Shown: positions 27,198 to 64,000, numbered from the stretch's first letter. The stretch is DNA of 64,000 nucleotides from Verrucomicrobiota bacterium (GCA_039818205.1 JBCBUK010000007.1:160001-224000), one strand, 5' to 3'. Made by a program: numbers and translations. The notes: generated by a model from the letters alone, not told the origin.

Positions 27198-28931
<1,734 letters not shown>

Positions 28932-54377: not shown

Positions 54378-54514
54378 GCCAGCCGAGCTTGCTCGAAATC
54401 AGTTCGCTGGCAAACCCTATTGCGCCAGAATGGCGCATTTTTCACGTTAACAAAACCTCAAAAGCCCGCTGTCGCCCATGTCCACATCTTTTCGAAATTT
54501 TCCCGTTTTCCCCC

Positions 54515-54543
54515 TTGACTGGCAATACCCACAAACATACTTT
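54515..54543 (+). promoter_or_regulatory. Sigma-70 promoter of tRNA-Thr
   Basis: TTGACT-N17-TACTTT, ending 15 nt before the tRNA. Confidence 0.7.
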
Positions 54544-54558
54544 CCTCGGCTTTTCTTG

Positions 54559-54634
54559 GCCACCTTAGCTCAGCTGGTAGAGCGGTTGATTTGTAATCTC
54601 CAGGTCGTCGGTTCGACTCCGACAGGTGGCTCCA
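54559..54634 (+). tRNA. tRNA-Thr(TGT)
   Basis: Acceptor stem GCCACCT/AGGTGGC, D stem GCTC/GAGC, anticodon loop TTTGTAA, T arm GTCGG-TTCGACT-CCGAC and an encoded CCA. The anticodon stem has two mismatches. Confidence 0.9.
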
Positions 54635-54669
54635 TTTTTCCTGAAGGCTGAATCGCCTTTGAATATGCC

Positions 54670-54710
54670 AAAACCCGCATCATTACTAAGATGGCGGGAT
54701 TTTTTGTTTT
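54670..54710 (+). terminator. Terminator downstream of the tRNA
   Basis: CCCGCATC-loop-GATGGCGGG followed by a T-run. Confidence 0.6.
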
Positions 54711-54793
54711 CCAACCCCAGAGAGCGACTCGATTGAGATAGGAATTTCAAAATTGTTGAAAAATCCAGTATATTGGTCTATTCAGGTCTACCT

Positions 54794-55903
54794 ATGGGAC
54801 GAAAGAAGAAAGGCGCACGGGTATACAGAATTAAGCATCCCACAATGAACTGGCAGGTAACGCTTACTCAGTCAGACGGACGCAAAATACGGGAATACTT
54901 CAAAAAGGAGTCGGACGCTAACAAACGAGCTGAAGAGCTCAACCAGAGAATACTGATCGAAGGAGTTGATGGGGTTTTATTTGGAGCCGAAGCTCGTGCG
55001 GAATACGCTGCTTGCAAACGCAAGCTAGCTGGACGAGATGTTTCCCTCCTCGCAGTCGTCGACGAATGGTTGAACAGCCATCCGAAAACAATCAAAAAGG
55101 ATTTTAGAGACGCGATTGACGAGTTTTGCGAGGCGAAACGGTCCGCAAATCGAAGAGAAATCACCATATCGAAGTACGCTCGGTGTCTCAAAGAGTTCCA
55201 GCTATTTTCGCTCCTATCAAGCATTGACCAAATCCAACCGCAACATTGCAGGAACTACCTACTACGGCCATCGTTAGCTCCTGCAACTATGCAAAATTAC
55301 CGAGCCACACTGAGCAGTTTCTGTAGCTACTGCAGGAAGCGAGGCTGGCTAGAGACCGATCCATTAAAGTCGATTGATCGTCCGACATTGGATGCAAACA
55401 ATCCGGTTGTATTGTCCCCTGATGAGGTGGCGAGATTCATGGCTTGCTGCGCGAAGCTCAGCGATGGACGGATTGTTCGGGCGGTAGCTCTTCGACTTTT
55501 CGCGGGTTTACGCCCTGGGGAGCAAGAAGTGTTAACTGAGCGAGATATTCTAAAAGATGGGATTCGCGTTGGGGCGGGTAAGATTCGGGGCCGACGCTCG
55601 GTACGCATAGTGCCAATTTCATCAATCCTCAAGGGTTGGCTGGATGCGTTTCCTGATGCTTCGCTCCAACCAACGAACTTCCGCAAGTTGCAGGAGCAAG
55701 CGATTGAGCAAGCTGGACTATCGAAGATTTGGGCAAAGGATATTCTCCGCCATACCTGGATCTCTTACCGGCTGGCCGAAACGAACGACGAACGGCTTGT
55801 CGCGCGGGAGGCAGGAAATTCGCCGGATATCATCTACCGGCACTACTTCCAGCTGGTTTCGGCTGACGACGTCGAGCGATTTGGGAAGTATTGCCTGCTT
55901 TAG
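54794..55903 (+). CDS. Tyrosine recombinase/integrase
   Basis: Three-domain layout. GLRPGE (Arg I), K, DILRHT (Arg II), AGNS and RHY (catalytic Tyr). Adjacent to the tRNA. Confidence 0.92.
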   Translation: MGRKKKGARVYRIKHPTMNWQVTLTQSDGRKIREYFKKESDANKRAEELNQRILIEGVDGVLFGAEARAEYAACKRKLAGRDVSLLAVVDEWLNSHPKTIKKDFRDAIDEFCEAKRSANRREITISKYARCLKEFQLFSLLSSIDQIQPQHCRNYLLRPSLAPATMQNYRATLSSFCSYCRKRGWLETDPLKSIDRPTLDANNPVVLSPDEVARFMACCAKLSDGRIVRAVALRLFAGLRPGEQEVLTERDILKDGIRVGAGKIRGRRSVRIVPISSILKGWLDAFPDASLQPTNFRKLQEQAIEQAGLSKIWAKDILRHTWISYRLAETNDERLVAREAGNSPDIIYRHYFQLVSADDVERFGKYCLL

Positions 55904-56400
55904 CTTCCTGAATCCTCGAAGGAAACAATCGTTTTGTCGCCTTGGAATTGGTCATGTCCGGTGAGCGATGCGAAATCGTCTCCCTGGAAGATCATCTGTT
56001 GTGGACGATCTTCTTGAGCAAAGACAGATTGAGCGTTGTAGGCCCGCCACGGCCAATCGTTAGGACGGTTTTCCCGAATGAACTCTTTCAGGGCTTCCAT
56101 TCGATTGCATAGGCGCAATCCGTTATGGAGATTCTCGTTTGAATCGCTCGAATCCAATACCGGCGACTCCCATTCCGGAAGGGTCAGGTCAAGGTAGCTG
56201 ATTTGCTGCTCTAGTAGCATGATTTCCTCGGTGAGCATTAGCAGGATTCGACGCCGCTCACTGAGATCGCTGTTTGCCCACAGCGCGCAGCGAAAATACC
56301 ACGCAGCCGGGCGCATTGAGTGTTCTGCATTTGTGTCCGTCATGTTACAAAGTATTGGACGAAGAATTGAAGTCTTGAGCTGTTTAGCGGTCAACGACAA
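55900..56400 (-). CDS. Hypothetical element protein (start TTG 56400 or ATG 56343)
   Basis: Abuts the RHH gene stop and overlaps the integrase stop by 4 nt. Confidence 0.6.
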   Translation of the reverse strand: MSLTAKQLKTSILRPILCNMTDTNAEHSMRPAAWYFRCALWANSDLSERRRILLMLTEEIMLLEQQISYLDLTLPEWESPVLDSSDSNENLHNGLRLCNRMEALKEFIRENRPNDWPWRAYNAQSVFAQEDRPQQMIFQGDDFASLTGHDQFQGDKTIVSFEDSGS

Positions 56401-56676
56401 TCAGCTGGCGGCCTTCTTTGCTTTGCCTGACCGTGATTTCCTCTTGTAGGGGCTGGCCGCATCCGTTGGCTCGGCCTGCGTCGTTTTTGCGGCTTTGGTA
56501 GTGGGAACCACCTTGAGTGGGCTGCTGATGTAGCCGTTTTCCTTGTAGAACTCAATTATGGCCCGCGCGGCGTGCCTGAGGAGCATGCCAGCGGGCATAT
56601 CAACCTCTGCGCAAATTGCTTCGAACTCCTCTTTGAGGTCATCTTCCACGGTAACATTGATCTGTTTTCGAGCCAT
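56401..56676 (-). CDS. Ribbon-helix-helix transcriptional regulator (putative repressor)
   Basis: KQINVTV beta-strand followed by the helices DDLKEEFEAIC and AGMLLRHAARAII. Divergent from the replication operon. Confidence 0.7.
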   Translation of the reverse strand: MARKQINVTVEDDLKEEFEAICAEVDMPAGMLLRHAARAIIEFYKENGYISSPLKVVPTTKAAKTTQAEPTDAASPYKRKSRSGKAKKAAS

Positions 56677-56826
56677 GGTATAGAAAACCTACAATTTTTT
56701 TTCGAATTGTCGAGTTTTCTAAGTCAGTGATCCTTCGCGCCTTATCTGTATAGAGAAACTATATCGCGAGTAGGATGTATATTTTTCTATTGTGAATATA
56801 GGTATCCTACGCATAAGTTTTCTTCC
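56677..56826. promoter_or_regulatory. Divergent promoter/operator region of the element
   Basis: AT-rich, with the inverted repeat GTAGGAT.TATATT...AATATA..ATCCTAC at 56770-56810. Confidence 0.5.
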
Positions 56827-57072
56827 ATGAGCAAGAAGAACGAACTGAAGGACTGGGTAACGCCGGCATTTGTGGCTCGGCGGTTTTGTCTTAGTCCATC
56901 CACAATTTTGAAACACATCATCGCCGGAAACATTGAAGCGTTTCCGAGCCGCTTAAACAAAAAGGGCCGCCCGTCTGGTTTCCGCATAAAGCGGACTGAG
57001 GTCATGCGTTTGGATCGGTGCGGGATTCGTCCGCGCATCCACAATTTCAACAACGGCCTTCGCGCCATTTGA
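56827..57072 (+). CDS. Excisionase-like helix-turn-helix protein
   Basis: WVTP..VARRFCLSPSTI...I..G.I.A......FRI...EV, the MerR/Xis-like winged-HTH pattern. Confidence 0.7.
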   Translation: MSKKNELKDWVTPAFVARRFCLSPSTILKHIIAGNIEAFPSRLNKKGRPSGFRIKRTEVMRLDRCGIRPRIHNFNNGLRAI

Positions 57073-57079
57073 GGGCCTT

Positions 57080-57283
57080 GTGATGCTGGACGAGAAAACA
57101 GACTACAACGTTATCATCTGCGAGCAATGCGGCGGCGTTGGTTATCACTGGTTCGAGGAACGGCTAGACGGGTACGGAAAGAACACCCGCCAGCACAAGG
57201 AGGAGTGCTGCGCATGCCAGGGCTCGGGCCGTTTGTCCGTGGAGACCACGACACGCATCAAACCATTCGGAGTATCCAGATGA
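57080..57283 (+). CDS. Small DnaJ-type zinc-finger protein
   Basis: CEQCGGVG and CACQGSG (two CxxCxGxG repeats). Confidence 0.7.
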   Translation: MMLDEKTDYNVIICEQCGGVGYHWFEERLDGYGKNTRQHKEECCACQGSGRLSVETTTRIKPFGVSR

Positions 57284-57639
57284 TCTCTACAGCATACCAC
57301 TTTGGGCGACAGCAATTGGGCACAAAGCGTTTCTTGGCGCGAGGTCCTGAATCCCACATCGAGGAAAGAAGAGGAGCGAGCGCGATGAATCATTCTTCCT
57401 TTCTGCTCGTTGCAGTTACCCCGCTGGGTGGGTCTTTGGCTTTGCCAGGCCTGCCCAGCACTGACTTTTGCGCTCAACTCGTGTCAACCCGTCCGGCTTC
57501 GCAGGATGCGACCGGGCGGGATCAGGAGAGATTTCAGAATGACTTTATCACGGAGGGCTTGTTACCCCGTTTAATCCAACTATTCGCACCCCCACTGCGG
57601 GTCGCAGGCGTAGCCGAAGACGGGAAGGCTCCTCAATGA
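57280..57639 (+). CDS. Hypothetical ORF overlapping the putative replication origin
   Basis: ATGA-coupled to both neighbours; no motif recognised. Confidence 0.4.
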   Translation: MISTAYHFGRQQLGTKRFLARGPESHIEERRGASAMNHSSFLLVAVTPLGGSLALPGLPSTDFCAQLVSTRPASQDATGRDQERFQNDFITEGLLPRLIQLFAPPLRVAGVAEDGKAPQ

Positions 57640-58598
57640 AACTTAACAAGATGGACCGCGGCGAAGCGTACTCGATGGGTCGCACCGAAACCGCCTACGC
57701 CGACGAATACGCCAACAACGATTTACCTTCAGGTGAGATTCAAGTTCTGCCGTACCGGGCTAAGAGTTACCTTTGCGATGGTGGCGGACGATTGATTCAT
57801 CGTGACATGGTGCGCCGGGGTATGCCGACCGATTTTACGGGCTGGTTGTTCGTTACGCTCACGCTCGATCGCGAGTTCTTCGACCACGACCCCGAGCTCG
57901 GATACTTAGTTGGCAAGGAGCGTATGCGACGCTTCTTCGATTACTTAAAGAAGCATGGTCACAAAATCGAAAAGTGGATTTGGAAGCTCGAGTTTCATCC
58001 CGAATCTCCCGAGTGGGTGCACTGGCATCTGCTATTGGATCATCGGAAGTTTGTGCCTTGGGAATTGATTCAGCGCGCTTGGAATCTTGGACGCGTCAAC
58101 GTCGAGCGAGTCGAGAGTTACGCTCAGGGTCAACGCATCGGCGAGTATGAGTTTAAGTATGTCTTCAAGGAAGGCATGGGCCCGCCCAAGTGGCTGCTGA
58201 AGTATAAGCGCATTCGCTTCATCCAAACGAAGGGCATCTTCGAAAAGAAGTCTAAGACCAAAGATGAGACCGTCGAAGAGGAGCTAAACCGCAAAGAGGA
58301 ACAGCACGCTTACGAAGGCAAAGACAACCGTAGCGAGTCGCCCACGATCGGTGAGCGCATGCAGATGTGGAAGCGCAAGATTACGGCGGTCTACGACACC
58401 GCTGAAGGTAAGCAAGTGCGGTCCTATGAACTCGTAACGACCGCCGAACGTTTCTTCGGCCACCTTTGGAATTTACCAACTAACCTTCGGTGCTTGATGG
58501 CACCGTTTCACGCGATTGTTCGCAAACATCAAATAATACTAGATTATGTCAGAGTTAACAACCACCTCGCCACGCATCTCCAAGGCGCTCTTGGATAA
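57636..58598 (+). CDS. HUH-superfamily rolling-circle replication initiator (Rep)
   Basis: Motif I FVTLT (57849-57863), motif II HWH (58020-58028) and motif III YEFKYVFK (58146-58169). Confidence 0.88.
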   Translation: MKLNKMDRGEAYSMGRTETAYADEYANNDLPSGEIQVLPYRAKSYLCDGGGRLIHRDMVRRGMPTDFTGWLFVTLTLDREFFDHDPELGYLVGKERMRRFFDYLKKHGHKIEKWIWKLEFHPESPEWVHWHLLLDHRKFVPWELIQRAWNLGRVNVERVESYAQGQRIGEYEFKYVFKEGMGPPKWLLKYKRIRFIQTKGIFEKKSKTKDETVEEELNRKEEQHAYEGKDNRSESPTIGERMQMWKRKITAVYDTAEGKQVRSYELVTTAERFFGHLWNLPTNLRCLMAPFHAIVRKHQIILDYVRVNNHLATHLQGALG

Positions 58599-59046
58599 GT
58601 TCTTCATCCAGCCTGAGGCTGAGAAGCTCAAAGGAAAACACCACGTCGAAGGGCTACTGCTTGCCGGACGCGTTACCACGATCAAGCACACGCCGCATAC
58701 GAGCGAGAGAAATGGCGAGACCATCTTCAAAGTGCAAACGGCGATCGAGATCGAATCCGACGGGCGCAAGTATCAATACTCCAGTTGGTCGAACCTCAAC
58801 GAGGGACAAGAACCCATCGAGCTTAAGCGCGATACGCATTACATCTTTAGCGTCGGAGGACTCAAGAGCCACCGAGTTACCGATGGCACTTATACCGATC
58901 GCAACGGAAACGAACGGGCTAACACGGTCGCCGAACTCACCGAGGTTCGCCGGCTAGAAGTAGCCGAGTTGGAAATTCGCCCGAAGGGCGCGAGCTCCAC
59001 GCCTTCGGATGCGGATGCGCGGCAGCGCGCCGCGACGAAGTCGTGA
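58546..59046 (+). CDS. Putative ssDNA-binding protein (pV-like position)
   Basis: Beta-rich and soluble; lies between rep and the coat gene as gene V does. The call rests mostly on position. Confidence 0.5.
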   Translation: MSELTTTSPRISKALLDKFFIQPEAEKLKGKHHVEGLLLAGRVTTIKHTPHTSERNGETIFKVQTAIEIESDGRKYQYSSWSNLNEGQEPIELKRDTHYIFSVGGLKSHRVTDGTYTDRNGNERANTVAELTEVRRLEVAELEIRPKGASSTPSDADARQRAATKS

Positions 59047-59120
59047 GCTCCTTTCCTTGTTATACCTGTCGTAACTGACGCCAAATTTCGTCGACGAACC
59101 AAACCAAAACCAAGATCAAA

Positions 59121-59321
59121 ATGAATCCATTCAAAAACATATGGGCCGTCTTCTTCTGCATGATGGCAACGACGTTTGCCCAAGTAACCACATCGGACCT
59201 AAGCGCGGTTGAAACCGCCGTGGGCGATGTCGAAACCATCTGGGGAACAATCGCTACGATCATCATCGGCGTTGCTGCCGTGATGGTGGGTAAGAAGTTC
59301 CTCCGAAGGGCAGGCTCCTAA
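59121..59321 (+). CDS. Inovirus-type major coat protein (pVIII-like procoat)
   Basis: 20-aa signal ending TFA. The 46-aa mature part has an acidic amphipathic N-terminus, the TM segment IWGTIATIIIGVAAVMVG and the basic tail KKFLRRAGS. Confidence 0.85.
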   Translation: MNPFKNIWAVFFCMMATTFAQVTTSDLSAVETAVGDVETIWGTIATIIIGVAAVMVGKKFLRRAGS

Positions 59322-59329
59322 ATCAACAC

Positions 59330-59362
59330 AGGGGCGGGCCATAAACCCGCCCCTTTTATTTT
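59330..59362 (+). terminator. Rho-independent terminator after the coat gene
   Basis: AGGGGCGGG-ccataaa-CCCGCCCCT-TTTATTTT. Confidence 0.85.
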
Positions 59363-59691
59363 CGACTCGCGATGCGCGATGGAAATTGGTCTAACTTGGT
59401 TAGTGTGTGCCACCGGCGTGTTTCATTATGCAAATACTCGATAATCTAACTTCCGAGAAAAGAGATCAAGTCTCACCATAAAGGCGTTGAATTTGAGAAT
59501 GAAATTGCTCCCAAGTCGAAAACGCCTGCGGCCCAAATCGAAATTATCTATTGTTGTAAACCCTAGAAAAATAACGATTTGCGTGAATCAAAAATACCAA
59601 AACTGAGAAAGAACCTAATTAGTCCTCCGAAAAGCAACCGCTATCACTACACATTCTATTATTTCGTCAAACGATTGCTAGTCCAATTACA

Positions 59692-59713
59692 TTGACAAGC
59701 GACTTAGTCTCAA
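59692..59713 (+). promoter_or_regulatory. Candidate -35 box with an overlapping Fur-like palindrome
   Basis: TTGACA at 59692-59697. AAGCGACT-T-AGTCTCAA is an imperfect 8-1-8 palindrome upstream of the iron ABC operon. Confidence 0.35.
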
Positions 59714-59869
59714 TTTCATAAAGTCACAGTATCGAGACCACCGTAACAAAAATTTAACCAAAAATTTTCGATTCGGTATCGGGCTTTGGACGATCTTCCG
59801 AGACTGATTGATCATACGACCCCTCTAGCAAACAAATCTCTGAACACTTTTATATTGAGCGCGCCTACG

Positions 59870-60880
59870 ATGAAACGAAGCAGTATCTCCCTTGTAATAT
59901 TTGGTCTAATAGGATTTTCACTATCCTTAGATGCGCTGACGGTTTACAGCTTCCGACATTATCCAGCCGACGATGCTTTGTTTGAAAAATTCACCGAGCA
60001 AACTGGCATTCCGGTAGAGGTTGTTAAAGCCAAAGCGGGAGCGCTCTTGGAACGCCTAGAAGCAGAAGGTGATCAGTCACCGGCGGACATTCTGATTACC
60101 TCTGACGCAGCCCGCCTGCACATAGCGACTGAGAAAGGTCTTTTGCAACCAATCGACTCACCGATCCTTAAAGAGCGGATTCCTCCTTACCTGCGTGACC
60201 CGAACGACAACTGGTTCGGTTTTACACAGCGAGCTCGAGTCTTCGTATACAATCCGGAATCTGTTTCTAGTAAAGACCTGACGACCTATGAAGATCTCGC
60301 CAATCCAGAGTGGCGAGGTCGGATTGTATGCCGTTCATCCTCTAACGTTTATAATCAGTCTTTGTTGGCATCAGTCATCGCAGCGGACGGAAAAGACGCT
60401 GCGATCAATTGGGCAAAAGGTGTAAGAAAGAACATGGCGCGCGCACCGCAGGGCAATGACCGGGACCAAATCCGCGCAGTAGCAAAGGGCTTAGCCGATC
60501 TCGCAATCGTGAACACCTACTACGTCGGTCTAATGTTGAATTCAGATGACCACAAAGACCGAAAAATCGCCCAACGGCTAAAAATATTCTTCCCTAACCA
60601 GGCTAACCGCGGCACTCACATAAATATCAGCGGAGCAGGCATCACCAAAGCTTCGAAAAACATTGAGGATGCCAAAGCCTTTCTAGAATTTTTGGCATCC
60701 GATGAAGCCCAAAGCACATTCCCAAACGCAACTTACGAATATCCTGTAGTAAATGAGGTTGAGTGGTCCGAACAACAAAAGGAGTGGGGCCAGTTTAAAT
60801 CAGACACCCTATCACTAGACCTCCTAGGCGAGAATAACGCCAACGCGATTCGCGTATTCAACCTAGCGGGTTGGGAGTAA
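59870..60880 (+). CDS. Fe(III) ABC transporter substrate-binding protein (FbpA/FutA-like)
   Basis: VYS.RHY, EG.QSPAD, SSNVYNQS, PQGNDR, NTYY and GTHINISG. Confidence 0.92.
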   Translation: MKRSSISLVIFGLIGFSLSLDALTVYSFRHYPADDALFEKFTEQTGIPVEVVKAKAGALLERLEAEGDQSPADILITSDAARLHIATEKGLLQPIDSPILKERIPPYLRDPNDNWFGFTQRARVFVYNPESVSSKDLTTYEDLANPEWRGRIVCRSSSNVYNQSLLASVIAADGKDAAINWAKGVRKNMARAPQGNDRDQIRAVAKGLADLAIVNTYYVGLMLNSDDHKDRKIAQRLKIFFPNQANRGTHINISGAGITKASKNIEDAKAFLEFLASDEAQSTFPNATYEYPVVNEVEWSEQQKEWGQFKSDTLSLDLLGENNANAIRVFNLAGWE

Positions 60881-60882
60881 AC

Positions 60883-62487
60883 GTGAATCGCCAATTGCAG
60901 CTGCGCCGAGCAGTTGACAGCTGGTCGATTAGCACGGTCGTCGTTTGTTTGGCGATCTTGACCCCGTTGGCAGTCATTTTCCTATCGGTTTTTAAGACAG
61001 CCCCCGACTGGCAGCACATCCAGTCTACTGTTCTCACCCTCTATATAGGCAATACACTCTTCCTAGTTTTCGCAGTAGGATTTGTCGCGTTTCTTTTCGC
61101 TGCACCGACTGCTTGGTTTGTGGTCTACTACGATTTCCCTGGCAAACGGTGGCTATCATGGGCCTTGGTCTTGCCCTTGGCGATTCCCACGTACGTCGCG
61201 GCCTTCACCTACTACGATTTATTAGACCACACGATACCCTTGATAGTTGCTGCAAGGAAAGCCTGGGGGTTTGAGGCCTCCCAAAGGTTGGAACAAATTC
61301 TTCGATACGGCTTGCTCGTCCTCCTGATGAGCAGTGTCCTCTACCCATACATCTTCTTTACTCTCCGGGCGTCATTTATGCGCCAGCAAGCGGTTTTCCT
61401 AGAGGCAGGCCGTATGCTGGGCAAATCAACTGGCAGTATTTTCTGGCAGATCGCACTCCCCCTATCCAGACCAGCATTGGTGGCAGGCCTCGGCCTAGTG
61501 GCGATGGAAGTAATCAATGATTATGGCGCCGTCAATTTCTTTGGAGCTCCGACACTGACAGAAGGGATATTCCGAACTTGGTTCGGACTGGAGGATCAAG
61601 CATCGGCAATGCGCCTGGCCTTATCAATGACCGTGCTCGTCCTCATTTTGCTTGGATTTGAATTGTGGACCCGTCGACGGGTGCGCTTCGCGGCCGGAGA
61701 ACTCGAAGGGCATAGCCTCATGCCAGTCCGAATTCGCGGGTACAAGGGTTGGCTGATTACATTCATATGTATTGTTCCTCTTTTCACAGGATTTCTTTTC
61801 CCTGTCTTCCGCCTGCTACATTGGGCCGTGCTTTCATTTGGAGATTTTGACTTTTCTACCATTGGCCCACAGATAACCAAAAGCTTAATACTCGCGGCCA
61901 CAACTACCGTTATACTCGGAGCTGTCGCATTACTATTCGCGTTTTGCGGACGAGTACACCCTAGTCTAAGTCTTCGCCGAATAATTCGTGTAGCAACCAT
62001 AGGATATGCGATACCTGGTGCAGTCATTGCAGTCGGCGTTATGACCTTGTTCGGCACGGTCGACCAAATGGTTTCTCATCACATCCTTGGCGGAAGCCTA
62101 TTTGCGCTTGGGTTCGCTTACCTCATTCGGTTCCTCACGATTGCATACCAACCACTTGATGCGGGGATGAATAGCGTTGGTCAAAGCCTTCTTGATGCAT
62201 CGTTCATTCTAGGCAGGTCGAGAATTCAAACGCTTCTAAGAATACACCTCCCTTTGTTGATGCCAGTGCTGCTTGCGGCATCAATTCTCGTCTTTATCGA
62301 TATCCTTAAAGAACTTCCGCTTACTTTGATCCTGCGGACAAGTGACTTTGAAACACTAGCAACCTATGCTTTCGGATTTGCAAAAGAGGGCGCAATCTAT
62401 GATTGTTCCATACCGTCGCTTTGTATTATCTTGGCCGGCAGCGTTGGTTTGATTCTGGCCAATCGTTGGATGCGGCCTAGCACATAG
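60883..62487 (+). CDS. Fe(III) ABC transporter permease (FbpB/FutB-like)
   Basis: LPLAIPTY, LYPY, LPLSRPA, GYAIPG and KELP. Confidence 0.92.
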   Translation: MNRQLQLRRAVDSWSISTVVVCLAILTPLAVIFLSVFKTAPDWQHIQSTVLTLYIGNTLFLVFAVGFVAFLFAAPTAWFVVYYDFPGKRWLSWALVLPLAIPTYVAAFTYYDLLDHTIPLIVAARKAWGFEASQRLEQILRYGLLVLLMSSVLYPYIFFTLRASFMRQQAVFLEAGRMLGKSTGSIFWQIALPLSRPALVAGLGLVAMEVINDYGAVNFFGAPTLTEGIFRTWFGLEDQASAMRLALSMTVLVLILLGFELWTRRRVRFAAGELEGHSLMPVRIRGYKGWLITFICIVPLFTGFLFPVFRLLHWAVLSFGDFDFSTIGPQITKSLILAATTTVILGAVALLFAFCGRVHPSLSLRRIIRVATIGYAIPGAVIAVGVMTLFGTVDQMVSHHILGGSLFALGFAYLIRFLTIAYQPLDAGMNSVGQSLLDASFILGRSRIQTLLRIHLPLLMPVLLAASILVFIDILKELPLTLILRTSDFETLATYAFGFAKEGAIYDCSIPSLCIILAGSVGLILANRWMRPST

Positions 62488-62488
62488 T

Positions 62489-63220
62489 ATGCTCGAGATA
62501 GCGAACATTCGTAAAGTCTACGAGAACGACAGCCATGCAGCCGTCGAGGATGTCTCGTTGGAGCTCCCAGCGGGCAAAATCATTACGCTGCTTGGTGAAA
62601 GCGGATGTGGTAAAACTACCCTGCTCCGAATGATCGCTGGACTCGCTGTTCCAAACGAAGGAGAAATTCGCTTGAACAACGAATTGATGGTCGGGCCATC
62701 GACTTGGGTCCCACCACAGAAGCGAAAAATCGGTATGGTCGCACAAGGCGGTGCTCTCTTTCCCCACATGACGGTTTTCAAAAACATCGCTTATGGACTC
62801 TCACATTTGAACAAAAATGAACGCCTGGACCGCATTCGCCAGAAGCTCGAGCTGGTCGGGCTAGCAGACAAACAACATCGCTATCCCCATGAACTCTCGG
62901 GCGGCGAGCGCCAGCGTATTGCACTCATTCGTGCCCTAGCCCCTAGCCCACGATTGATCTTATTGGACGAGCCATTCAGCAACCTAGACACGACGCGAAA
63001 GAAACTCTTGCGAACTGAAGTTCGGTCCATCCTAAAGCGAGAGAATATGACTGCGATCCTCGTTTCTCACGATCCACAAGACGCACGACACTTCGGCGAT
63101 CTTATCGCTATCATGCGCTCCGGAAGAATTAGTCAAAGCGGAACAAAAGAAGAGATCATCAGCCATCCATGCAATGAATATTGCTCCGAACTAATCGGTG
63201 AGATCGGTAAAGACTCTTAA
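62489..63220 (+). CDS. Fe(III) ABC transporter ATP-binding protein (FbpC-like)
   Basis: GESGCGKT, ALFPHM, LSGGERQR and LLDEPFSNLD. Confidence 0.92.
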   Translation: MLEIANIRKVYENDSHAAVEDVSLELPAGKIITLLGESGCGKTTLLRMIAGLAVPNEGEIRLNNELMVGPSTWVPPQKRKIGMVAQGGALFPHMTVFKNIAYGLSHLNKNERLDRIRQKLELVGLADKQHRYPHELSGGERQRIALIRALAPSPRLILLDEPFSNLDTTRKKLLRTEVRSILKRENMTAILVSHDPQDARHFGDLIAIMRSGRISQSGTKEEIISHPCNEYCSELIGEIGKDS

Positions 63221-63238
63221 AGCGTTCATAGTAGAAAT

Positions 63239-63265
63239 GGGCCGACGGATTTTCTCCGTCGACCC
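63239..63265 (+). terminator. Hairpin after the iron ABC operon
   Basis: GGGCCGACGGA-tttt-cTCCGTCGACCC. Confidence 0.55.
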
Positions 63266-63382
63266 TGGTCATGCTTGGCTTATTTGCGTATGGATGTAGA
63301 GTAGCAGGTGATCGCAAAATTGAACGTGCAGATTCATTGGATCTGCACCAAACGCGTTGAGGGTAGAACGAACAAAATCAGT

Positions 63383-63416
63383 GTCCGTTGACGGGGGCTG
63401 ACTCCCGCCAACGGAC
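63383..63416 (-). terminator. Hairpin after the PEP-CTERM gene
   Basis: GTCCGTTG.CGGG...CCCG.CAACGGAC. Confidence 0.5.
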
Positions 63417-63422
63417 GGTGCA

Positions 63423-64000
63423 TTATCGACGCATACGGCGCATCAAGAGAAGTCCACTGGCAACACCAAAGATAAGCGCATAAGTCGAGGGTTCTGGAAT
63501 GACAGTTCCTTCGAATGCGTTTCCGCTATCAAGTTGCATCGCGAAACTCGCAGAATGGGCGATCGAATCCCATTCTATGGTAAAGTCAGAAATCGTTACG
63601 CCAATAGCAGAGAGATCCCACTGATATGCATTAATCGTGGAGGGGCTTCCGCCAAAAGCGAAATTTCCAGACATATTTTCTGAAATATCTGCAGCGAGCT
63701 CTTGCGCTCCACCATTATAGCTCAATGTCGGGCCACCAGAAATCGCGCCGACCATATCAATCTGAAAAACGACTGTTTCGAGACCTGAGATTGGAGAAGA
63801 CGCACTAATGAAGAACGAACCAGGAGTGTCGAAATTATAGATCGAAGTCGAAGCCGGGTATCCACCGCCCCCAGCAACCTTGTCAAACGTGACAGATCCG
63901 ACGTCCGCGGAAATTGGAGTGCTCCATCCAGCCGTGTTCGTAAAGAAGCTATTGTAGCCCGATGAGGTAGGATAGTTTGATGAGTTCAGATCCTCCCAGC
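63423..64000 (-). CDS. PEP-CTERM sorting domain protein, 5'-partial
   Basis: C-terminus VIPEPSTYALIFGVASGLLLMRRMRR. The frame is open to the window end. Confidence 0.9.
   Translation of the reverse strand, partial: WEDLNSSNYPTSSGYNSFFTNTAGWSTPISADVGSVTFDKVAGGGGYPASTSIYNFDTPGSFFISASSPISGLETVVFQIDMVGAISGGPTLSYNGGAQELAADISENMSGNFAFGGSPSTINAYQWDLSAIGVTISDFTIEWDSIAHSASFAMQLDSGNAFEGTVIPEPSTYALIFGVASGLLLMRRMRR

Follow-up and report, generated by a model that had tools for sequence, protein, structure and literature searches.

A probable defective inovirus prophage joined to an accessory island at a tRNA-Thr gene of a Cerasicoccus-genus bacterium

The genome of the Verrucomicrobiota bacterium GCA_039818205.1 carries, directly 3' of a tRNA-Thr gene, a compact block of genes resembling those of filamentous phages (inoviruses). 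We analyzed this block within a stretch of 64,000 nucleotides (nt) of contig C7 (JBCBUK010000007.1:160001-224000), hereafter the window. Unless indicated otherwise, coordinates are window positions, C-numbers denote contigs, and G000 is the window's own genome. A preliminary description of the window had placed at 54635-59362 an inovirus-like element with its own integrase, in an apparent Verrucomicrobium, and all the features it listed were recovered in place from an open reading frame (ORF) list and a tRNA scan. The host was called correctly as well: the genome, that of a marine bacterium, belongs to the same genus as Cerasicoccus frondis.

The block follows tRNA-Thr(TGT) (54559-54634, plus strand; identified with ARAGORN), the integration target. 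The core of the left attachment site (attL), 52 nt at 54585-54636 on the plus strand, encompasses tRNA positions 27-76 followed by TT and is repeated exactly elsewhere on C7. Next comes a tyrosine integrase of 376 amino acids (aa) (54773-55903, plus strand) that matches phrog_1 over residues 19-337 (E = 4.1e-29) and contains SAM-like N-domains (PF02899/PF13102) above the Pfam cut-off. The Pfam model of the catalytic domain, PF00589, did not match this protein at E<=1; there is a weak match to XerA (E = 0.0064), and the alignment covers the GLRPGE arginine motif. Two paralogs of the integrase in the same genome (76% and 60% identity) adjoin tRNA-Lys(CTT) and tRNA-Thr(CGT). The elements carrying these paralogs lie at the right end of C2 and the left end of C16, where the contigs break within the elements, and copies of the 3' parts of both tRNA genes are found on C26 and C21.

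The integrase gene is followed by two leftward genes and a divergent rightward operon. The first leftward gene, orf166m (55900-56400, minus strand; 166 aa, possibly 147 aa from Met20), has no assigned function: it matched no family in Pfam or PHROGs and yielded nothing usable in the Atlas, and its homologs show 51% (L025), 42% (C45), 37% (C42) and 30% (G008) identity. The second one encodes a 91-aa RHH/Arc-like putative repressor (56401-56676, minus strand), and the rightward operon opens with an 81-aa HTH_17/excisionase (Xis)-like protein (56827-57072, plus strand). The family matches of this divergent pair, noticed already in the preliminary description, are weak (for the former, RHH_1 with E = 0.15 and the Arc-like phrog_3180 with E = 0.015; for the latter, HTH_17 with E = 0.016 and phrog_66 with E = 0.021); homologs in a C. 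frondis prophage are 76% and 87.5% identical to the two proteins. The operon continues with a 67-aa ORF containing a double CxxC zinc finger (57080-57283, plus strand), which matches phrog_7429 (6.6e-6) and phrog_20107 (1.5e-5), both without assigned function, as well as DnaJ_CXXCXGXG below the cut-off (E = 0.0025). Then follow genes for a replication protein, a second 166-aa protein and a coat protein, and a strong terminator.

The replication protein, a rolling-circle Rep of the HUH type (320 aa; 57636-58598, plus strand), matches PF23343 (REP_ORF2-G2P) with an E value of 1.3e-8 and a score of 35.4 bits, against a curated cut-off of 27.8. The motifs FxTLTxD, HxH and YxxKY are invariant in 8 homologs (F72/T74/L75/T76/D78, H129/H131 and Y171/K174/Y175), in agreement with the earlier call of an HUH Rep. 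Among 5.8 billion proteins, the homologs of Rep form 26 clusters, all with PF23343, and the few named ones come from Puniceicoccales. A tblastn search of 50,697 deposited phage records gave no match at E<=1e-3, and a Rep profile run against the PDB sequences retrieved nothing except a 97-aa 'Rep' chain (E = 0.045). Pattern scans with the single protein as the query detected no close relative in the genome, viral or metagenome contig collections; when a 3-sequence alignment was used instead, the scan of the genome contigs yielded C. frondis and one spurious 21-residue match. A second, distant Rep lineage (33-36% identity) lies beside the orf166m homolog on C45, and on C48, a stretch 87% identical to the Rep DNA of C45 adjoins tRNA-Arg(CCT) (C45 and C48 correspond to L010 and L011).

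Just upstream of Rep, a conserved non-coding block (57590-57630, plus strand) contains a small hairpin, CTGCG-GGT-CGCAG, at 57595-57607. In this block, 39 of the 41 positions are the same as in C. frondis, whereas the DNA around it is far more diverged; such conservation suggests a candidate origin or regulatory site. The intergenic region between the zinc-finger ORF and Rep as a whole folds no better than shuffled sequences (z = -1.22). A 13-nt segment of the block (57599-57611) has an inverted copy, complementary at 12 of 13 positions, at 59522-59534, in unique DNA just past the junction described below; this may be due to chance.

The 166-aa protein that follows Rep (58546-59046, plus strand) occupies the position of gene V of the Ff phages and belongs to no sequence family in Pfam or PHROGs. 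It is nearly an orphan: 5.8 billion proteins include only 2 homologs besides the protein itself, and a profile search of 1.84 billion proteins retrieved a single family representative. An AlphaFold (AF2) model built on a 4-sequence alignment has a mean pLDDT of 64, with block means of 66-87 for residues 36-142, and takes the form of an all-beta barrel with five long strands, so that the beta-rich protein of the preliminary description is indeed present. The top Foldseek matches of the model are oligonucleotide/oligosaccharide-binding (OB) domains, single-stranded DNA-binding protein (SSB), RPA and PriB (best E = 6.2e-3, probability 0.99), and the best VIA-align Z score is 7.0, to the small SSB 4dam. 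On this middling evidence, the protein, hereafter the OB protein, is a putative single-stranded DNA (ssDNA)-binding protein that would fit a gene-V-like role.

The next gene (59121-59321, plus strand) encodes a 66-aa major coat protein precursor of the pVIII type. It matches PF05356 (Inovirus Coat protein B) with an E value of 9.7e-6 and 26.0 bits, above the cut-off of 23.5, and in 14 control genomes no match to this family exceeded the cut-off. The precursor is laid out as expected of pVIII in both charge and hydropathy, with a signal-like hydrophobic leader, an acidic mature N-terminus, a hydrophobic core and a basic C-terminus; in the predicted mature protein of 46 aa, the first 20 residues include 4 acidic and 0 basic ones, and the last 12 include 4 basic and 0 acidic ones. 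Thus, the pVIII-like procoat proposed from the sequence is confirmed by a family match. The gene is followed by an intrinsic terminator (59330-59362, plus strand) with a stem of 8 G-C pairs (59330-59354) and a T run, which is found on both strands and conserved in a sister copy of the element on contig C35. An 8-mer at 59362, TTCGACTC, occurs in C35 as well and does not represent an attachment site.

Downstream of the terminator, the phage gene order breaks off. Neither the block itself nor the stretch from the coat gene to the ABC transporter contains an ORF for a pI/Zot ATPase, pIII or pVI, and from 59786 on, the genes are of host type (a solute-binding protein, a permease and an ABC ATPase). 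In this genome, PF05707 (Zot) matches proteins on C35 and C42 only, and none on C7. The comparison with C35 locates the break. The end of C35 aligns with 59207-59386 of the window at 91.7% nucleotide identity, C35 stops inside the coat gene, and the C-terminal part of the coat protein encoded there is identical to that of the window in 37 of 37 aa. In the phage direction, the coat gene of C35 is followed by ORFs of 605, 119, 388 (Zot, E = 1.8e-21), 98, 489 and 255 aa. The two copies have in common the end of the coat gene, the terminator and the beginning of the adsorption (pIII-like) gene of 605 aa, with its ATG at 59372; the first five codons of this gene encode MRDGN in the window, compared to MRYGN in C35, and after 59386 the sequences diverge completely. 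The window copy thus breaks off after codon 5 of the adsorption gene, of which a remnant, delineated by the alignment to the C35 end, is left at 59372-59386 (plus strand). The truncation junction lies between 59386 and 59387, and at 59387 an accessory segment of 19.8 kb begins that occupies the rest of the window (59387-64000, plus strand) and continues past its end. The Zot proteins of C35 and C42 are 94% identical to each other, and that of C35 shows only 21-25% identity, over about half its length, to the Zot proteins of Vibrio and Pseudomonas inoviruses. Directly downstream of the last ORFs of the C35 prophage, a protein of more than 1755 aa with an RHS repeat (L008:3-5267, minus strand) runs off the contig.

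The junction was checked on contigs (Logan) produced by an independent assembler from one public run (X1); the data of this run are probably those behind the source assembly, so that the check controls for the assembler and not for the sample. An 11,284-nt contig covers 59219-61500 with 0 differences and so crosses the 59386/59387 junction; it starts inside the coat gene, with the silent bases specific to the window, and reaches the ABC transporter genes. A variant contig leaves the window at 59386 and continues exactly as C35 does. Variant contigs that are 87-92% identical to the window cover 55636-59386 at a k-mer depth of 52-115; the depth is 20.7-22.1 for the window-specific contigs and 35.9 for the left flank, a measure that, in metagenome contigs, cannot separate extra chromosomal copies from other strains or episomes.

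Complete relatives of the element show what lies beyond the coat gene. Rep homologs were found in 12 of the 60 related genomes searched and in 10 of the 15 within the same family. The closest one (71% identity) belongs to Cerasicoccus frondis NBRC 105381, of the same genus (locus L025/L056), where it is part of a 13.6-kb prophage bounded by a 106-nt repeat of the 3' region of tRNA-Thr(CGT). The gene order of this prophage is integrase, four cargo genes, the leftward pair, HTH protein, zinc-finger protein, Rep, OB protein, two coat proteins, ORFs of 483 and 115 aa, and Zot (E = 1.1e-11). Like the element in the window, it is located at a tRNA-Thr gene, its repeat starts from about tRNA position 30, and the order from the integrase through the leftward pair (orf and RHH) to the coat gene is the same; in addition to the two regulators and Rep, the integrase (57.6% identity) and the OB protein (77%) are shared. 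The C. frondis prophage differs from the window element in targeting tRNA-Thr(CGT), in the four extra genes after the integrase, in the two tandem coat paralogs, and in being complete with Zot. Being bounded by attachment sites and present in a cultured type-collection strain, it is directly testable. Its cargo (L025:2836-6247) consists of genes for an AAA_28 kinase-like protein, a nucleoside 2-deoxyribosyltransferase-like protein, a 456-aa thymidylate-synthase-like protein and a 308-aa ORF. These genes could form a cassette for nucleotide modification or for defense against phages, with a filamentous prophage as its carrier.

Another genome of the same family, G013, encodes a Rep with 54% and an OB protein with 52% identity, a 93-aa coat protein, a 581-aa ORF and Zot (E = 3.2e-11). 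Altogether, 7 of the 19 Rep matches outside G000 are accompanied by PF05707 3-5 kb downstream on the same strand; the remaining 12 have no PF05707 within 10 kb on the contig, some of these contigs being short. Among the latter, G035 (L030:5082-8424) stands out with a compact arrangement of a tRNA, an integrase, a 206-aa ORF, an HTH protein, Rep (43% identity in the best segment) and a 105-aa ORF, with no coat or Zot match nearby; this unit might represent either a satellite or a minimal rolling-circle element that integrates. In three related genomes, a second structural module (coat, pIII-like, pVI-like and Zot) lies less than 10 kb from the first (L026:14860-18000, L027:20-2800 and L029:331-3570), indicating that inovirus prophages cluster or sit in tandem in the family of the window's host. 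The lineage, so far restricted to Puniceicoccales, is characterized by its own Rep clade, the near-orphan OB-fold protein, tRNA-specific integrases and several copies per genome.

The attachment repeats define a unit much larger than the phage block. The right attachment site (attR), an exact copy of attL (52 of 52 nt; blastn-short), is located at C7:239143-239194, 15.1 kb past the window end, so that the unit between the intact tRNA-Thr gene and this repeat of the tRNA 3' part is 24.6 kb long; the accessory segment, C7:219387-239194, corresponds to window positions 59387-64000 together with L031:1-15194. No repeat of the tRNA end is present within 54400-60000. The right end at 59362 given for the element originally was thus close to a real boundary, the end of homology at 59386, whereas the att-bounded unit is 24.6 kb long, not 4.7 kb. 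The repeats of related integrases begin at tRNA positions 27-30, both in this genome (tRNA-Lys(CTT) and tRNA-Thr(CGT)) and in C. frondis (tRNA-Thr(CGT)), which makes the far repeat a plausible product of this integrase family.

Within the window, the accessory segment encodes an Fe-type ABC transporter (SBP_bac_6, BPD_transp_1 and ABC_tran) and a PEP-CTERM protein; beyond the window, it encodes a flavodoxin, HemS/ChuX, Fur, four N_methyl pseudopilins, a T2SS-M-like protein, two T2SSE ATPases, T2SSF and a 742-aa secretin. An iron/haem/Fur set and a complete type II secretion or type IV pilus-like cluster are thus all contained inside the island bounded by the tRNA repeats. None of the four same-genus genomes searched (4/4, 96-97% complete) yielded the Fe-binding protein at E<=1e-10, and the best same-genus match of the secretin is 28% identical, compared to 59-85% for flanking core genes; as judged from these comparisons, the right part of the island is accessory and strain-specific. 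The unit shows the traits of a tRNA-linked genomic island, namely, an integrase next to an intact tRNA gene, a far repeat of the tRNA end and content absent from close relatives. The GC content and tetranucleotide distances of both the phage module and the right part are close to those of control segments and are not informative. The unit has no second integrase and no middle repeat, and near attR no genes of a prophage right end were found; with the right ends of the complete prophages, the right end of the island shares only a dispersed repeat of approximately 100 nt. This repeat (L031:14306-14404) is 81-86% identical to copies on C26, C16, C38 and C24.

Taken together, the block most probably represents the left 4.75 kb of a defective, tRNA-integrating inovirus (Tubulavirales) prophage of a Cerasicoccus-genus host (Opitutia), fused to an accessory island and retaining the modules for integration, regulation, rolling-circle replication, putative ssDNA-binding, and the major coat protein. 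The inovirus origin, proposed in the preliminary description, is supported by the coat protein and Rep, both above the curated Pfam cut-offs, and by the gene order, which in the sister copy and the relatives continues to pIII-like, pVI-like and Zot proteins. The coat ORF does not fall into a host membrane-protein family, Rep does not group exclusively with plasmids or transposons, and the block is not syntenic core DNA in relatives. The self-sufficient phage originally envisaged did not hold up: of the constituents of a complete inovirus, the pVIII-type coat protein and HUH Rep are present, and the pI/Zot morphogenesis ATPase, the adsorption protein and the pVI-like protein of the tip are missing.

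Under the defective-prophage scenario, the pIII-like, pVI-like and pI/Zot genes would have been lost by deletion or illegitimate recombination with a breakpoint behind codon 5 of the adsorption gene, and the same event would have joined the phage remnant to the 19.8 kb of iron-uptake and type II secretion-like genes. The integrase, together with the Xis-like HTH protein, may have retained the ability to excise the att-bounded unit and to integrate it again. The RHH protein would repress the rightward operon via the divergent promoter region (56677-56826), and Rep would nick an origin near its own gene, with the OB protein coating the displaced strand. With neither the assembly ATPase nor tip proteins, the element would be unable to assemble or export virions alone and would depend on a helper phage for any spread in virions. 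When the possible present states are considered jointly, an inert but young remnant is somewhat favored; a helper-dependent satellite is unlikely, albeit a possibility to be taken seriously, and retention for immunity or another benefit to the host is slightly less likely than that.

Pf phages use tRNA sites for integration. Similar to these and other Pf-type inoviruses, the window element has its own tyrosine integrase at a tRNA gene, direct repeats of the tRNA 3' part, divergent regulators and, in one direction, an HUH Rep, a putative ssDNA-binding protein, a pVIII-type coat protein and a terminator; the full-length relatives continue with an adsorption protein, a pVI-like protein and a Zot-type ATPase, whereas pI, the hallmark gene, is missing from the window copy. 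The study of Roux et al. 2019 (PMC6813254) describes the detection of inoviruses via pI and attachment repeats located in tRNA genes or beside integrases; a truncated copy without pI implies that pI-based detection misses such inovirus-derived elements. Supplementary file 5 of the same study lists 4 inovirus species from Verrucomicrobia, validated as prophages in large contigs. The preliminary description had presented the phylum as one in which no well-characterized filamentous phage was known; inovirus prophages had been predicted there already, which makes their occurrence in the phylum only modestly new. None of the papers listed in a literature search on inoviruses and Verrucomicrobia describes a characterized verrucomicrobial filamentous phage, and these phages are known only as database predictions. 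In the sister phylum Lentisphaerae, filamentous particles and inovirus genomes are reported in an eLife paper.

Several observations weigh against the interpretation of the locus as a defective remnant fused to an island. First, all eight ORFs of the phage block are intact. Most of the differences between the window and its sister are silent (6 synonymous and 0 non-synonymous in the coat gene, 8 and 3 in the OB gene, as counted in 40 of the 258 differences listed and in the alignment of the C35 end), which suggests that the copies diverged as working genes and that the truncated copy is not visibly decayed; this divergence may predate the truncation and gives no date for it. Second, the assembly graph is multi-copy from approximately 55684 to 59219, so that the middle 3.5 kb is tied to the tRNA locus by the path chosen by the assembler and by the conserved gene order, and this linkage was judged on contigs, not on spanning raw reads. 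Third, the 19.8 kb might be either a second tandem element joined by deletion or cargo captured inside one element. Finally, no clean empty tRNA-Thr site, which the preliminary description had proposed to look for, was found in the relatives, where the neighbors of tRNA-Thr(TGT) differ: in 5 same-genus genomes, the flank with a sigma-54 regulator is conserved and tRNA-Thr(TGT) is located elsewhere, and the regions to the right of the junction and to the right of attR have no DNA-level match and no protein synteny in the same-genus genomes.

An alternative that we consider unlikely but worth serious attention is that the element is an active helper-dependent satellite (a natural phagemid). Upon induction of the full-length inovirus in the same cell, either the element or the 24.6-kb island would excise and replicate by means of its own Rep, to be packaged and exported by the pIII-like, pVI-like and pI proteins of a co-resident sister. 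The integrase, the att repeats, Rep, the block upstream of it, the OB protein and the coat protein have all been kept; the ORFs are intact, with mostly silent divergence; the C-terminal 37 aa of the coat protein are equal to those of the sister; two Zot-bearing structural modules (C35 and C42) are present in the same genome, assuming that the small contigs are binned from the same cell; and a majority of the Rep matches outside this genome, including the compact unit of G035, come without a nearby Zot. Filamentous satellites that lack morphogenesis genes are established in Vibrio: as described in PMC3545932, RS1-phi and TLC-phi of Vibrio cholerae have no morphogenesis genes and use helper phages. 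Their helpers are CTX-phi, KSF-1 or fs2. The window element resembles these in being integrated, in keeping the genes for replication, regulation and integration in the absence of morphogenesis genes, and in the presence of complete relatives with structural genes alongside. Unlike the window element, which has a coat gene and a putative ssDNA-binding gene, its own integrase and a tRNA site, RS1 and TLC have no coat gene and rely on the host XerCD at dif; moreover, evident mid-gene truncation and 19.8 kb of cargo set the window element apart, and for this element, packaging by a helper is a hypothesis. A junction that cuts a gene after 5 codons resembles an accident more than a stable design, and scans of genome, viral and metagenome contigs revealed no second genome with the same truncated form. 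The depth of the window-specific contigs (20.7-22.1) is not above that of the flanks (20.7-35.9), although this is a weak measure of extra copies. Outside Vibrio, the window element is a concrete candidate for a filamentous satellite that depends on a helper.

The capsids of filamentous phages have no fixed length, which makes the packaging of 20 kb of cargo by a helper conceivable. In an extended version of the satellite scenario that we regard as improbable, the entire 24.6-kb unit would be a 'phagemid island', in which the inovirus-derived integrase, Rep, origin and coat protein would drive excision and rolling-circle replication and a co-resident helper would package the 20-kb cargo of iron-uptake and secretin/type II secretion genes. 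If this were the case, large clusters of adaptive genes in marine Verrucomicrobiota could be moved by way of filamentous phages.

It is very improbable that a chimeric assembly path through a repeat produced the junction or the middle 3.5 kb and that the real locus holds a full-length prophage. The exact match of the final 77 nt of C2 to C7:215655-215731, the deeper variant contigs over 55636-59386 and the end of C35 within the coat gene would fit such an artefact; however, the contig from the independent assembler crosses the junction without a difference, and the last 77 nt of C35 differ from C7 at 3 positions, so that C35 is another copy. Less probable still is a non-viral integrative rolling-circle plasmid or mobilizable island that merely resembles a phage. 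The occurrence of the Rep family without a nearby Zot in 12 of the 19 matches is compatible with this origin, but the coat protein exceeds the Coat_B cut-off that nothing in the control genomes reached, and both gene order and sequence (52-87% aa identity) match those of complete, Zot-bearing prophages. Least probable of all is a self-sufficient minimal inovirus of ~4.7 kb that would use host factors for assembly and export: Rep, the putative ssDNA-binding protein, the coat protein and the terminator are in the Ff II-V-VIII order, but no pI/Zot-like ATPase, tip proteins or further ORFs precede the host-type genes, all close relatives examined have pIII-like and Zot genes directly after the coat gene (with a pVI-like gene in C35 and C. 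frondis), and the 5-codon stub of the adsorption gene persists.

An arrangement of comparable size was observed at tRNA-Thr(TGT) in another genome of the same genus, G001 (L051/L052), where the tRNA gene and a partial copy of it are 24.8 kb apart (C13:2772-2821 and 27584-27662). The repeat is flanked on one side by an apparently frameshifted homolog (62-65% identity) of the window integrase that follows it, and on the other by a second integrase unrelated to the first; islands are thus present in tandem at this tRNA gene.

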